Source: a virus. Taken from it: a stretch of DNA of 64,000 nt. Numbering within the stretch: the first letter of the stretch is position 1; each line of letters begins with the position of its first letter. The translations under genes and the position numbers were made by a program. The stretch covers positions 1-64,000 of the IMG/VR virus record IMGVR_UViG_3300045772_000033. One strand, given 5' to 3'. The notes under the pieces were generated by a model that had not been told where the DNA came from, made no database searches, and saw only the letters and a list, made by a program, of their open reading frames with translations. Below, in pieces: positions 34,127 through 43,777 of this stretch.

Positions 34127-36639
34127 GCGGACAAAAGCCACAGATCGACTATGACGCACTGGCAGACCAAGCCAGAAAACAAGCTACGTCCGCAGTTCCC
34201 GTCCCCAAAAATGCGGCGCAGCCCACTGCCGTCGATTACGATGCGCTGGCGGCGCAGGCGAGACAAGCGCAAGTCCCTGCGCCACCTGCTCCTACTGTTG
34301 CGGCGCCAGCGCCTCAAGAAGGCTTCTGGGCTTCCGCTGTCTCCCCTTTCGTGGGAATGGCTCAGGGTCTCAAATCGGCTGTCTACGAGGGTCCGCAGAA
34401 TCCTACTGAGGCTGCAATCGTAGGCGGACAACCGGGAGTGAGCTTGTGGGACGATGCGACCCCTATCATTGGTCGGGCGGTCTTGGCAGCAAAGAGGATG
34501 CTGGTCGATCCACAGATTGATCAAGGGAAACAGGCGGCGAGTGCATTCAAGCAGGCGGCGCCGCTGTCTCTGCATCCAACTCCAGGGCAATTGGAGCAGC
34601 GACAGCTCGCGCTTGGGCACGGTCTCGCTGCTGCAATTCCTATGCTGGGGCCGTGGGCCGCAAATGTGGGCGAAAAGGAAGGCGAACAGCTCGCGGCTGG
34701 AAACTACCTGGGTGCTACCGGCACAGCGTTTGGCAACGCTGCGCTCGCGCTTGCACCCAAAGGAATATCCAAAATGGCGGGAGCTGCTCCTGAAGCCGCA
34801 CAAGGCCTTGTTCGCGTCGCCACCGGCACTGGTACAGGCCCAGTCAAAGAACTCGTCAAACAGCGCCGGATCGCCAACGCAGGCATCGACGAGGCCAATG
34901 CCGCGGCTGACAAAGCTCACGCCGGTAACACGCAAGACGCACTGCATGAGCAACGGGGCCGCGAGATCGAATATCAGATAGCTGTTGACAGCAAGACTCA
35001 GGAAATTGCTCAAGCAGATCAGTCCGAGGCTGGGCAACTTGCTGCCAAGCAGTCCGCTGCCGAGCGGAAGGTCACCGCGGCCAATGAAGCCATCAGGGCT
35101 AAGCACCAGGCTGTTGCACAGAAGGTGGCCGACGCCAACCGTGCCGCCGAAAACGCACTTGAACTTCGACGTCAGCTTGAGCAGACTTATCAGAAGGCTA
35201 CCGCAGACCACTACGCCAAAGAGCAGGCTACCGACACGCAAGCCAAGGCTGAAGAGAATACCGCCTGGCAGGGTTGGAGACAGAAGACCGCGGGAAAGAC
35301 TCTCGATGGTGGGCTGATCGCCGAGCCACTTCAGAAACTGCGCCTTGACTCACCTGAAGTGGACCGGACGCTAAATCAACTTGAACCCCGCGGCGATGAA
35401 GTTCCGCAGGAATCGCCTTACACACAGATACGCGCGCAAGCAGCACAAAAGCAATTCGGCAAAGACTACGAATCTCTCATCCCGGTCAAGCAAGACGAAA
35501 TTGATGACTTGCTTCATTCCAGCGGATATTCTCCGGAGCCGATTGCGTTTGACCCCCAAGCTGGGCAGCCGATTTCCATCGATCGAGTGCAGCGTGCGTC
35601 TTCTATCCTTCAGCGATATATACGCAGCGGCCGATTTGAGGGGCCGCTGCTCGGAGAAATGAAGCAAGTGGCGAAGGTGTTGCGTAATGCCGTGACGCGG
35701 GCCTCTGCCGATGCTGGAGCTACTCCTGAGCTCGATGCCGCGCGCAACTCTACCGTTACCTATCAGAATGCCTTCGGCCGGGAACGTAATATGCCCGCCA
35801 CTGCGCGCACCATTCGTGAAAAACAACTCAATCCGGAGGCCTTTCAAGAGCGCGCGGACGAAGAGCGCTTAGCCAAGGCGCGTCGTTACGACCCCACCCT
35901 GGTCGATTCTTACCGCCAGGTCAAGGCCGCGCGCAAGGCGCTGGATAGCCTTTCTCCTGAAGATCAGATTCGCAAGAGATTGCGCCAAGTGCCCCCGCCT
36001 CCGACCGTGAATGATCCCCGACCTGGGTTCCGGCTGACCGCTCCGCCGCAGCGCACTCCCGCCCGGCCGGCATCTGGTTCCCCTGCCGAACGCGCGTTTC
36101 AATCGGTGGATCAGCCTTCACGTCCCAATTTCCCTGATCGGCCTATTCCTGATCCTCATCAGACCATCTCTGCCGGCGACATTGCTGCCGCCAAGAGAGC
36201 GGCCGTTGAAGCCAGCGCAGGAAAGTGGTGGACTCGCGGACGCTGGGCAGCAGCCGCCCCGATCATTTGGGCCATGCGTGGATTCTTCGGCGGGCACATC
36301 CCTTCTATCCCCATGGCTGGTGCTGAATCCGGGGGCATTCTGGCTGCCACTCACGTTGGGGTATCTCTTCTTCGCTACCCGCCGTTGGTTGATTTCCTGG
36401 TCAAGGCCCGACCCAAAGACGTTGCGGTTATTCCGTTGGAACTCCGTGGTGACTTACCTGGTCTGGTCTCTCAAGCTCAGCGACAGGGGATCAAGGTATC
36501 TCCGGCACTGCTCGCAGCGACAGGAGGGGCGCTGGCTGCCCAAAAGAAAGAAGGGCCTCAAGGCCTTCAATTACCCATTCCAGTAGCGCAAGCCTTACAA
36601 GCTATGCAACCTACCTTCTCGCAAGGAGCAACTCAATGA
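34123..36639 (+). CDS. large putative ejection protein
   Basis: Repeated DYDALA.QA N-terminus, Ala-rich helical. Confidence 0.55.
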   Translation: MSGQKPQIDYDALADQARKQATSAVPVPKNAAQPTAVDYDALAAQARQAQVPAPPAPTVAAPAPQEGFWASAVSPFVGMAQGLKSAVYEGPQNPTEAAIVGGQPGVSLWDDATPIIGRAVLAAKRMLVDPQIDQGKQAASAFKQAAPLSLHPTPGQLEQRQLALGHGLAAAIPMLGPWAANVGEKEGEQLAAGNYLGATGTAFGNAALALAPKGISKMAGAAPEAAQGLVRVATGTGTGPVKELVKQRRIANAGIDEANAAADKAHAGNTQDALHEQRGREIEYQIAVDSKTQEIAQADQSEAGQLAAKQSAAERKVTAANEAIRAKHQAVAQKVADANRAAENALELRRQLEQTYQKATADHYAKEQATDTQAKAEENTAWQGWRQKTAGKTLDGGLIAEPLQKLRLDSPEVDRTLNQLEPRGDEVPQESPYTQIRAQAAQKQFGKDYESLIPVKQDEIDDLLHSSGYSPEPIAFDPQAGQPISIDRVQRASSILQRYIRSGRFEGPLLGEMKQVAKVLRNAVTRASADAGATPELDAARNSTVTYQNAFGRERNMPATARTIREKQLNPEAFQERADEERLAKARRYDPTLVDSYRQVKAARKALDSLSPEDQIRKRLRQVPPPPTVNDPRPGFRLTAPPQRTPARPASGSPAERAFQSVDQPSRPNFPDRPIPDPHQTISAGDIAAAKRAAVEASAGKWWTRGRWAAAAPIIWAMRGFFGGHIPSIPMAGAESGGILAATHVGVSLLRYPPLVDFLVKARPKDVAVIPLELRGDLPGLVSQAQRQGIKVSPALLAATGGALAAQKKEGPQGLQLPIPVAQALQAMQPTFSQGATQ

Positions 36640-41743: not shown

Positions 41744-43777
41744 ATGAGGAAGTTTCTGGTCACAATGGTTCTAATGCTGAGCGCAGTGCCGATGTTTGGG
41801 CAGTTGAGCTATGTGCCGCCGGCCAATGCAGCTTACTGCCTACACGCGGGGCACTGGATTCCTGTTGCCGCACAGGTTGGTACTCCGCTGAGTTTCGTGC
41901 CGCCTGCTGTCGGAATATATGGCGAGAATGGGACTTCGTGGTATGCGATGGCGTGTGATGCGAGCGGCAATCTGCTTCCCGGCGGAGCGGCTGGTGGCGA
42001 TCTGAGCGGCACGTATCCGAATCCGACAGTGGCCCAAGTCAACGGCGCAGCTATTCCGGTAAGCAAGACCGTCGTAGGCACAAACTCTAGTGGTCAAATT
42101 GTCGATGCTTCCAGTGCGACGCTGGCCAACAACACGACCGGCACGGCCACGAACGCCACGAACGTGGCGACCACGGCGAAGTCGGACAATACCAACTATT
42201 ATCTCGCGCTGCTTGGGTCCAATACCTCGACAAATCAGGGAGTGAACGTAGACTCCGCAGGTCTGGCATATTACAACCCGTCCGCCAGCACTTTTACCGC
42301 GCCGTACACGACAGCCCCAGCAGCATCATCGGCTACGGACTCGGCGTCTCTGGGACCAGAACTGACCACAAGTGGCACTTGCACCGGAACCGGGTGGACG
42401 GGGACGTATCCCAACTACATTGCACCTGGTACAACAGCGGCGCTGACCTGCACAGGATTCACGAGCGGAAGCTATTACCAGACAGTCACCGGAATTACGA
42501 ATAACGCAGGAGTCACTGCGGCGACCTACGTGAGCGGCATTTCAGCTACAGGATCAGGCACTTGTCTGCTGGCGTTTACAGGAGGCGGTGGGAGCGGAGC
42601 CACAGCCAGCATTGCAGTGACTTCTAACGTGCCGGGAGTAATTACCATAACCTCTCCGGGTACGGCGTTTACCAGCGCCCCAACAGCGGCCACGGTGAGC
42701 AATGGAACGCTAACCTGCACTGGCCCAGCGGTCTTGACTTCGACCATCGGAGGCGGCACGGTCACGGTTGCCATAGGAACCGCTCAGCCCGCAACGTCGG
42801 CTTCAACGGCTAGTTCCACACTAACCACCGGACCCAAAGCTAATGCCACATCGTTGACGTACACGCCTACGGCGGCTTTTGTGGGAACGATGAACATCAG
42901 CGCAAAGCTCATCTCGCCGATCACAACCTTTTCGTACACGGGAAAAGACTCGACTGGCGCGGTATCGACTACCGTGCTGTATCAAGGCTTAGCTTCTTTG
43001 CATAACATTTTTGAGGGTGGGGGCGGAACATACAACACGACCGGCATCTACAACTCCGCGCAGGGGAGCCAGGCCCTCTACTCCAACACGACCGGCAGCT
43101 ACAACTCCGCGCAGGGGTACAATGCCCTCTACTCCAACACGACCGGCATCTACAACTCCGCGCAGGGGAGCCAGGCCCTCTACTACAACACCACCGGCAG
43201 CGACAACTCCGCGCAGGGGTACACAGCCCTCTACTCTAATACCACCGGCTACTACAACTCCGCACAGGGGTATCAAGCCCTCTTCTCCAACACGACCGGC
43301 AGCTACAACTCCGCGCAGGGGTTGAATGCCCTCTACTACAACACGACCGGCATCTACAACTCCGCGCAGGGGTTCAACGCTGGTCGCTACATCAATGATG
43401 GTTCAACAGCCAACCAAACTTCCTCAAACAGCGTATATTTGGGCGCTAGTACAGAGGCCAAAGCCAACGGCGATACCAACGAGAACGTGATTGGCAATGG
43501 AGCAGTAGGCAATGGCAGCAACACAACTACACTTGGCAATAGCAGCGTGACAGCAACTTATCTGGCGGGGATTACTCTTCCTCTCGTGATTTACAGCCAC
43601 GCCGGAACGCAGTTGGCGGCTTGTGCAAGCGGGTTGCAAGGGGGAATGGCGGTTGTCAGTGATGCCACGGCACTAGTTCCAGGTACTGCATATTCTGTGA
43701 CAGCGGGGGCAGGAGCCGACACTGTGCGCGTGCAGTGCACGTTGGTAAGCGGAACCTACGCATGGCAGACGATGTAG
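41744..43777 (+). CDS. fibre/adhesin-like protein with signal peptide and 14-aa repeats
   Basis: MRKFLVTMVLMLSAVPMFG|Q; AGGDLSGTYPNPTV; (NSAQGxxALYxNTTG)n. Confidence 0.7.
   Translation: MRKFLVTMVLMLSAVPMFGQLSYVPPANAAYCLHAGHWIPVAAQVGTPLSFVPPAVGIYGENGTSWYAMACDASGNLLPGGAAGGDLSGTYPNPTVAQVNGAAIPVSKTVVGTNSSGQIVDASSATLANNTTGTATNATNVATTAKSDNTNYYLALLGSNTSTNQGVNVDSAGLAYYNPSASTFTAPYTTAPAASSATDSASLGPELTTSGTCTGTGWTGTYPNYIAPGTTAALTCTGFTSGSYYQTVTGITNNAGVTAATYVSGISATGSGTCLLAFTGGGGSGATASIAVTSNVPGVITITSPGTAFTSAPTAATVSNGTLTCTGPAVLTSTIGGGTVTVAIGTAQPATSASTASSTLTTGPKANATSLTYTPTAAFVGTMNISAKLISPITTFSYTGKDSTGAVSTTVLYQGLASLHNIFEGGGGTYNTTGIYNSAQGSQALYSNTTGSYNSAQGYNALYSNTTGIYNSAQGSQALYYNTTGSDNSAQGYTALYSNTTGYYNSAQGYQALFSNTTGSYNSAQGLNALYYNTTGIYNSAQGFNAGRYINDGSTANQTSSNSVYLGASTEAKANGDTNENVIGNGAVGNGSNTTTLGNSSVTATYLAGITLPLVIYSHAGTQLAACASGLQGGMAVVSDATALVPGTAYSVTAGAGADTVRVQCTLVSGTYAWQTM
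43031..43380 (+). repeat. 42-bp coding tandem repeat (about 8 units)
   Basis: aacacgaccggcNNctacaactccgcgcagggg...gccctctac repeated. Confidence 0.9.

Follow-up and report, generated by a model that had tools for sequence, protein, structure and literature searches.

Tailspikes and tail fibres of the model tailed phages are made without a leader and fold in the reducing cytoplasm of the host. In P22 (gp9), T7 (gp17) and the K1F/K1-5-type phages, these proteins are encoded at the end of the virion operon, with several receptor-binding proteins per phage, and they combine a conserved N-terminal module with swappable receptor-binding or depolymerase bodies. The DNA considered here (the window) is a stretch of 64,000 nucleotides (nt), positions 1 to 64,000 of IMG/VR virus record IMGVR_UViG_3300045772_000033, in which three consecutive large open reading frames (ORFs), ORF1 to ORF3, share this placement and this modular build. 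Unlike the model proteins, however, the window proteins and their homologues in the same phage clade have a Sec/signal peptidase I (SPase I)-type leader and many paired cysteines. It is moderately probable, in our estimate, that the three genes encode receptor-binding proteins made as Sec pre-proteins, folded in the periplasm and docked onto particles at lysis, and that, within this scheme, ORF1 is a tailspike whose N-terminal docking domain is shared across the clade, whereas ORF2 and ORF3 are fibre- or spike-like proteins. Export and periplasmic oxidation are well supported by inference, and the proteins most likely fold in the host periplasm rather than in the cytoplasm; docking onto particles at lysis is plausible by analogy.

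ORF1 (36636–39017, plus strand) encodes a tailspike-like protein of 793 amino acids (aa), ORF2 (39029–41695, plus strand) an 888-aa spike- or fibre-like protein and ORF3 (41744–43777, plus strand) a 677-aa tail-fibre protein. Each starts with an ATG behind a Shine-Dalgarno (SD) sequence (AAGGAG for 36636, GGAGG for 39029 and GAGGAG for 41744), and each product opens with a basic n-region (MKN, MKK and MRK, respectively), followed by an uncharged, Leu/Ile/Phe-rich hydrophobic core of 13–15 residues and a c-region with Pro or Gly. The leaders are MKNFVHALTIATILLFATASPA in ORF1 (36636–36701, plus strand; predicted SPase I cut before Gln23), MKKLLALLVLLAAPAFA in ORF2 (39029–39079) and MRKFLVTMVLMLSAVPMFG in ORF3 (41744–41800). 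The predicted cleavage sites, S-P-A↓Q, A-F-A↓Q and M-F-G↓Q, put Gln at +1 in all three proteins (codons at 36702, 39080 and 41801), just as the original prediction had described the genes and their N-termini. There is no lipobox Cys at +1 and no twin-Arg motif, so these are neither lipoprotein nor Tat signals; by their sequence, the three leaders are type-I (Sec/SPase I) signal-peptide-like. A crude scorer that asks for a K/R n-region, a 10-residue hydrophobic core and small residues at −3 and −1 was run on 108 greedy ORF calls from the whole 77.9-kb genome, and the only three that it flags are ORF1, ORF2 and ORF3. The portal, head proteins, adaptor, nozzle and internal proteins are scorer-negative, which bears out the earlier statement that capsid, portal, adaptor and nozzle have no leaders. 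In the AlphaFold2 (AF2) model of ORF1, residues 2–15, within the leader, form a helix.

Could the leaders be products of mis-called starts? This was rejected from inspection of the start codons and SD sequences of all three ORFs, and true starts downstream of the leaders are not supported. In ORF1, there is no in-frame ATG, GTG or TTG from the start until well into the conserved mature domain, and the ORF1 leader must therefore be translated. ORF2 has an alternative, coupled ATG at 39017, giving MGGNMKKLL, but this would only add MGGN and retain the leader.

Whether homologues keep the leaders had been set beforehand as the refuting test, and they do. About 40 proteins match ORF1, of which all but three share only the first ~140 mature residues with it. 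(P0002 and P0003 are full-length homologues with 82% identity, and P0017 has 36% identity over 64% of the query.) In an alignment of 38 full-length homologues of ORF1 (alignment A1), the leader is present in all 38, with a length of 16–49 aa, a net charge of +1 to +5 and only three Asp or Glu among 935 leader residues. Ala occupies position −1 in 36 of the 38 and Gln position +1 in 37; the residue at −3 is A, L, S, V or C, and −4 and −2 are often Pro. Mean pairwise identity is 25% over the last 16 leader residues, compared to 73% for the N-domain that follows (QIPSGYVQTTATVP...), and the mean Kyte-Doolittle hydropathy of those leader residues is 1.95, compared to 0.30 for the mature domain. 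Sequence drift, retained signal-peptide grammar and an exact boundary are, taken together, what a cleaved Sec signal would be expected to show. The preference for Gln at +1 resembles the Q-rule for SPase I substrates, which has been described as Bacteroidetes-specific (PMC5837995). All three window proteins conform to it, but the phage itself differs from that setting, since it points to Acidobacteriaceae and has strong SD sites (see below); the sequences suggest that the Q-rule may extend to Acidobacteriota.

A leader of this kind could also stay on the protein. Some phage lysis proteins, including the Sec-routed and signal-arrest-release (SAR) endolysins fOg44 Lys44 and P1 Lyz, are late products that pass through the Sec machinery of the host and are kept in the envelope until lysis (PMC6116005). 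By analogy, the leaders of ORF1 to ORF3 might be uncleaved or slowly released signal-anchors, with the spikes tethered at the periplasmic face and set free by depolarisation at lysis. The atypical −3 residue of ORF3 and the long leaders (30–49 aa) of some relatives would fit such an arrangement. It is nevertheless improbable, considering that cores of 13–15 residues, a Pro/Gly c-region and a near-invariant A-x-A↓Q are typical of cleaved signals, and that SAR domains are weakly hydrophobic and have a high content of Gly, Ala and Ser, unlike the Leu/Ile/Phe-rich cores found here. Lys44 and Lyz also differ from the proposed role of ORF1 to ORF3 in that they are lysis enzymes, not virion parts, and do not dock on a particle.

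The cysteines add a second line of evidence for Sec export followed by periplasmic folding. In their mature form, ORF1, ORF2 and ORF3 have 10, 18 and 8 Cys, respectively, all even numbers. The closely spaced motifs IACSTGSAWC, PSCTTFGC and GPCVYGNSTSTTC that had been quoted from the window are indeed present, all three of them in ORF2. The mature Cys count is even in 35 of the 38 ORF1-family proteins, in which counts reach 30, and in 95 of 118 when all leader-bearing matches are taken together, the odd ones being mostly single-Cys Bacteroidota cell proteins. Cysteines are also gained and lost in pairs: compared with ORF1, P0017 lacks both members of the pairs 319/325 and 748/754, while its own extra cysteines make five pairs, and in relatives of ORF3, the pairs 412/424, 439/444, 584/599 and 591/594 co-vary. 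Such even, pairwise behaviour points to disulfides and hence to folding in an oxidising compartment, and it is good indirect evidence that the mature proteins would be disulfide-bonded. Together with the leaders kept in homologues, it lends support, by inference, to the export and periplasmic disulfide bonding put forward in the original prediction. (A further possible mark of the periplasm, N-glycosylation, was dropped: ORF1 and ORF2 show no enrichment in N-x-S/T sequons, and ORF3 a mild one that stems from its repeat.)

Might the leaders be unused for export? They could act as a cytoplasmic chaperone segment or as a propeptide cut by a phage protease, and the spikes would then be added to the particle in the cytoplasm, as textbooks describe it for tail fibres. 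Prohead-protease processing has in fact been invoked to explain signal-like N-termini on phage capsid proteins (PMC10367356), but that logic is inapplicable to tail spikes. Moreover, cytoplasmic use would leave unexplained why SPase I grammar persists at 25% identity, why +1 is Gln in 37 of 38 proteins, why acidic residues are so scarce in the leaders and why the cysteines, up to 30 per protein, are even in number and co-vary in pairs. For these reasons, we find it very improbable.

If the proteins are exported, are they virion components? The genomic context argues that they are. Two IMG/VR scans yielded 19 contigs of the same phage clade, with a fixed gene order of adaptor, nozzle, small proteins, Cys-free internal proteins and then one to four large genes (the fibre slot). 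Of these contigs, 15 extend as far as the slot, and every one of them has an ORF1-type leader-bearing spike there, directly after the Cys-free internal proteins. By our count, about 30 of 30 large slot genes in these 15 contigs have a leader, including two assigned by visual inspection, as a Glu in their n-region caused the scorer to miss them. In some relatives, one leader-bearing spike is the only large slot gene. In the window, the protein immediately upstream is an 838-aa internal or ejection-type virion protein without Cys (34123–36639, plus strand). Its stop codon overlaps the ORF1 start (ATGA), and in all relatives a syntenic homologue immediately precedes the leader-bearing spike. The conserved N-domain of ORF1 (aa 23–140, with invariant Cys at 61, 90, 102 and 138; 36702–37055, plus strand) is a beta-sandwich that leads into a Gly-rich linker, and the bodies behind it are exchanged within the family, in which Pfam recognises C-terminal modules of the Gp53-like_C (tail-fibre tip), K1-lyase_C, pectate-lyase-like beta-helix, NosD/Beta_helix and SGNH esterase types. 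Presence throughout the clade, coupling to the operon, and an N-module that is conserved while the bodies are swapped are what one expects of a tailspike and not of an optional secreted enzyme.

One relative (L012 9929–16008; the same contig as L020 13553–19632) has two tandem paralogous ORF1-type spikes with the same N-domain and different bodies. The paralogues may either compete for one docking site or occupy several equivalent sites.

Modular exchange is also seen in the other two genes. The ORF2 N-module (aa 18 to ~95, with the CSTGSAWC pair) recurs, together with its leader, before different bodies in P0045, P0046, P0047, P0168 and P0169. A search with this module returned only close relatives plus a common fibre repeat, and the correlation of leaders with the CSTGSAWC Cys pair was not clean. 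The last ~85 residues of ORF2 (41441–41692) are Cys-rich and near-identical in P0045 in spite of an unrelated central body, and thus make up a second conserved module. ORF3 modules are more widespread, with a leader-like start in 118 of 165 matches; the matches that have one include cellular Bacteroidota proteins, and other matches are classical leaderless fibres. From this mixture it follows that the leader tracks the lineage or host and not the fibre module.

Structure prediction and family searches were of unequal help. No Pfam match was obtained for ORF1, ORF2 or ORF3 even at E = 10, and no PHROG match for ORF1 or ORF2. ORF3, on the other hand, has PHROG tail-spike and virion-structural matches and tblastn matches to tail-fibre genes of cultured phages, although a PDB sequence search with it was empty. 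It contains a 17-aa (51-nt) tandem repeat of 6.8 copies, NTTG.YNSAQG..ALYS, that is YadA-head-like (43033–43377, plus strand) and forms a regular ladder of beta-strands in the AF2 model, with a predicted local distance difference test (pLDDT) score of 65–82. Of the beta-helix and adhesin repeats announced in the original prediction, the repeat in ORF3 is thus found, but a beta-helix in ORF1 is only suggested (IHIDxS repeats, a low-confidence AF2 model and no Pfam match). Overall, the models are poor (pLDDT 49.5 for ORF1 and 45.1 for ORF3), with low-confidence bodies, and the ORF1 N-domain, at pLDDT 70–89, is the only confident part of its model. Searched against the PDB, its fold is closest to a cyanophage neck fibre and to the tail-tip sandwiches of Bxb1 and lambda (Z 6.6–7.6). 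The model is compatible with the N-domain being a candidate tail-docking module but not diagnostic of it.

Exported proteins could, of course, remain free of the particle. They might be periplasmic or secreted depolymerases or adhesins that trim or bind host envelope polysaccharide during infection, for the purpose of receptor destruction, superinfection exclusion or easier release, with receptor binding carried out by some other part, such as the variable N-terminal half of the nozzle. Bacteria do export enzymes with a tailspike fold: WceF of Pantoea stewartii is an exported trimeric beta-helix glycanase of this fold that acts on envelope polysaccharide (PMC7949094). It differs from ORF1 to ORF3 in being chromosomal, within an exopolysaccharide (EPS) cluster, in having a Tat signal and in lacking a phage docking domain. 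Porphyromonas gingivalis phages encode Q-rule signal-peptide proteins of unknown function, which have been read as host-modifying (PMC10367356) and not as fibres. The lyase and esterase modules of the ORF1 homologues would suit such an enzyme, and the N-terminal 400 aa of the nozzle do vary among relatives. However, an accessory enzyme is expected to be sporadic, and the ORF1-type gene is in every one of the 15 relatives. Its translation is coupled to that of the virion operon, and its 73%-identical N-domain with a swapped body is the pattern of a docking module. Furthermore, ORF3 is a fibre, not an enzyme, and leader-bearing analogues have been found in virions of Cellulophaga phage phi18:3. 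The 108 ORFs hold no other fibre candidate, so that the earlier claim that no other cytoplasmic fibre gene is evident holds within the reach of ORF size and family searches. Free enzymes are accordingly unlikely, and are rated below virion-docked receptor-binding proteins on account of universality and the docking-module pattern.

Leader-bearing proteins in the fibre position are not limited to this clade. Tunturi_1 (PP887698), a cultured podovirus of Tunturiibacter (Acidobacteriota, the probable host phylum of the present phage), has four large leader-bearing genes after its tail protein. Their products, gp12, gp13, gp14 and gp17, have 10–32 Cys and leaders built as MK, a hydrophobic stretch and an A↓Q-type site, such as MKKFIQLALLFILPAAASA, with Gln at +1 in gp12, gp13 and gp17 (L018 10371–23028); the portal, capsid and other structural proteins have no leader. 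The labels "tail spike" (gp14) and "virion structural" (gp17) come from homology and not from experiment, and the paper that describes the phage makes no mention of signal peptides (PMC11924767). There is no detectable sequence homology between these four proteins and ORF1 to ORF3, which makes the trait convergent and linked to the host.

In Bacteroidota podoviruses, Cellulophaga phage phi18:3 (gp085–087) and Ingeline_1 (gp31–33) each have, like the window, three consecutive leader-bearing fibre- or lyase-type genes. They differ from it in host phylum and in having few Cys (0–3). The phi18:3 proteins all begin with leaders that end in S/A-Q and are annotated as "structural protein" on the basis of experimental tandem mass spectrometry (MS/MS) proteomics, the only experimental hint that leader-bearing fibre proteins may reach particles. 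ORF3 has no direct homology to phi18:3 gp085, but its fibre module is found in Ingeline_1 gp31, a leader-bearing "structural protein" (E = 2e-13).

How would spikes made on the far side of the inner membrane find their particles? In the proposed scheme, SecYEG would export the unfolded chains late in infection and SPase I would cut them before Gln, which would probably cyclise to pyroglutamate. Folding, oligomerisation and disulfide formation would then take place in the oxidising periplasm of a diderm host. Once the lysis system breaches the inner membrane, the spikes would meet the spikeless particles built in the cytoplasm, and docking through their N-terminal domains would be the last assembly step. 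Addition of tailspikes or fibres is the last step in known phages as well, and works outside cells in vitro for P22 tailspikes and T4 fibres. It is this in vitro addition, and the fact that only the last-added parts carry leaders, that makes the docking step plausible; the virion role itself is favoured by universal syntenic presence, tailspike-type module swapping and the analogy with the phi18:3 MS/MS data. The presumed docking partners are an adaptor-like tail protein (26048–27331, plus strand; N-terminus MSQWSLVGD, not signal-like), which has a weak match to PF24175 SU10_adaptor and 64–80% identity in relatives, and a 902-aa nozzle-like tail protein (27328–30036, plus strand; N-terminus MSAKVVSQKK, without a leader). 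The nozzle is kept in all related contigs, most strongly over its C-terminal 500 aa.

Several points weigh against this scheme. The case for export is built from a crude scorer and sequence grammar. ORF3 is the weakest of the three genes in this respect, since Met at −3 of M-F-G↓Q is atypical and its exact cut site is therefore uncertain; in addition, there are three in-frame Met codons inside its leader, none with an SD sequence ahead of it, and a leaderless ORF3 isoform is conceivable. As to the N-domain, unrelated immunoglobulin (Ig)- and transthyretin-like folds score just below the best Z values, so that the match is not decisive for docking, and its BFVD matches to the N-terminal domains of tail fibres are weak and not decisive either. 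Incorporation into virions is argued from context and analogy, and the phi18:3 precedent comes from another phylum, concerns non-homologous proteins and is silent on leader cleavage. Finally, no description of post-export assembly of tailed phages, or of Sec leaders on tail fibres or spikes, was found in the full-text literature, which makes the prior odds modest. (A paper on diversity-generating retroelements (DGRs) takes the absence of signal peptides as a mark of phage origin.)

The scheme could also apply more widely. There may be a periplasmic branch of tailed-phage morphogenesis, shared by phages of Acidobacteriota and Bacteroidota, in which spikes would be Sec-exported, pyroglutamate-capped, disulfide-locked and docked after holin opening, and might act earlier as receptor-destroying enzymes inside the envelope. 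To us, this generalisation is tentative, with a little less than an even chance of being right.

If spikes do mature in the periplasm, this would be a widespread exception to the all-cytoplasmic making and assembly of tailed phages. Receptor-binding proteins of soil and marine phages would not be producible in active form without export or oxidising conditions, the timing of lysis would be part of virion assembly, and the Sec, Dsb and glutaminyl-cyclase functions of the host would become dependency factors for the phage. Annotation would be affected as well, as signal peptides now count as evidence against a virion role. The window contributes a clear and well-controlled example and a clade-wide family of leader-bearing N-domains, the ORF1 type, and since the same trait is present in cultured systems (Tunturi phages on Tunturiibacter, and Cellulophaga phages), the question is directly testable.

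What kind of phage is this? The window covers the first 64 kb of one viral contig that is 77,872 bp long in all. One arm is devoted to replication, with genes for PolA, a primase-polymerase, an SNF2 helicase and a C5 methyltransferase; the other is a long plus-strand virion operon with weak SU10-type portal and adaptor matches, the nozzle-like protein, a GNAT acetyltransferase and several Cys-free internal proteins. Gene order runs from adaptor to nozzle to internal proteins and then to ORF1, ORF2 and ORF3. The phage comes from soil, and its lineage is uncultured, apparently virulent and short-tailed. A tblastn search of 50,697 phage records gave no match for ORF1, ORF2 or the nozzle and one weak match for the portal, and the lack of matches for the first three indicates that the clade has no cultured relative. 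A prophage family was rejected, since the ORF1 N-domain has no relative among 185,579 prokaryote genomes.

The host is probably a member of the Acidobacteriota, an assignment of modest confidence drawn from sequence clues and from the analogy with Tunturi_1. A GC content of 57% and strong SD usage point away from a Bacteroidota host, and small lipoprotein-type genes that adjoin the fibre slot in relatives fit a diderm. The sole match of the ORF3 module among prokaryote genomes is in a contig of an Acidobacteriaceae metagenome-assembled genome (MAG), where its neighbours are leader-bearing. In this contig (L038, 629–3243), the ORF3-type fibre module is seemingly broken across frames, with two leader-bearing ORFs upstream; it may be what is left of a prophage, or else a phage contig that was binned together with the MAG. 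The nozzle was not found in the MAG. The MAG does encode Glu_cyclase_2, a glutaminyl cyclase (L039), as do several unrelated control genomes.

Among the remaining genes of the virion module, two internal virion proteins (31458–34126) open with uncharged hydrophobic segments, MAGTLATALAIAGIAAG and MGFWNALSVLAPVAPA, the second of which is invariant across the clade. They have no basic n-region and no cleavage motif, and are likely to be membrane-inserting ejection proteins, the segments not being signal peptides. The GNAT acetyltransferase (30500–30967) is encoded within the module, after the nozzle and before the internal proteins; in Tunturi_1, an acetyltransferase, gp34, is likewise found next to a small fibre gene. 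Downstream of the spikes (43817–49600), neither Pfam nor PHROGs identified an endolysin, holin or spanin. In relatives (L004, L008 and L013), lysins of the GH108, SleB or GH24 type and lipobox proteins are encoded close to the slot. A scan for promoters and terminators gave counts not above those of shuffled sequence. Elsewhere in the window, an 892-aa ORF (12716–15394) has a Hint/intein splicing domain and a LAGLIDADG homing endonuclease domain, and is an intein-containing phage gene.

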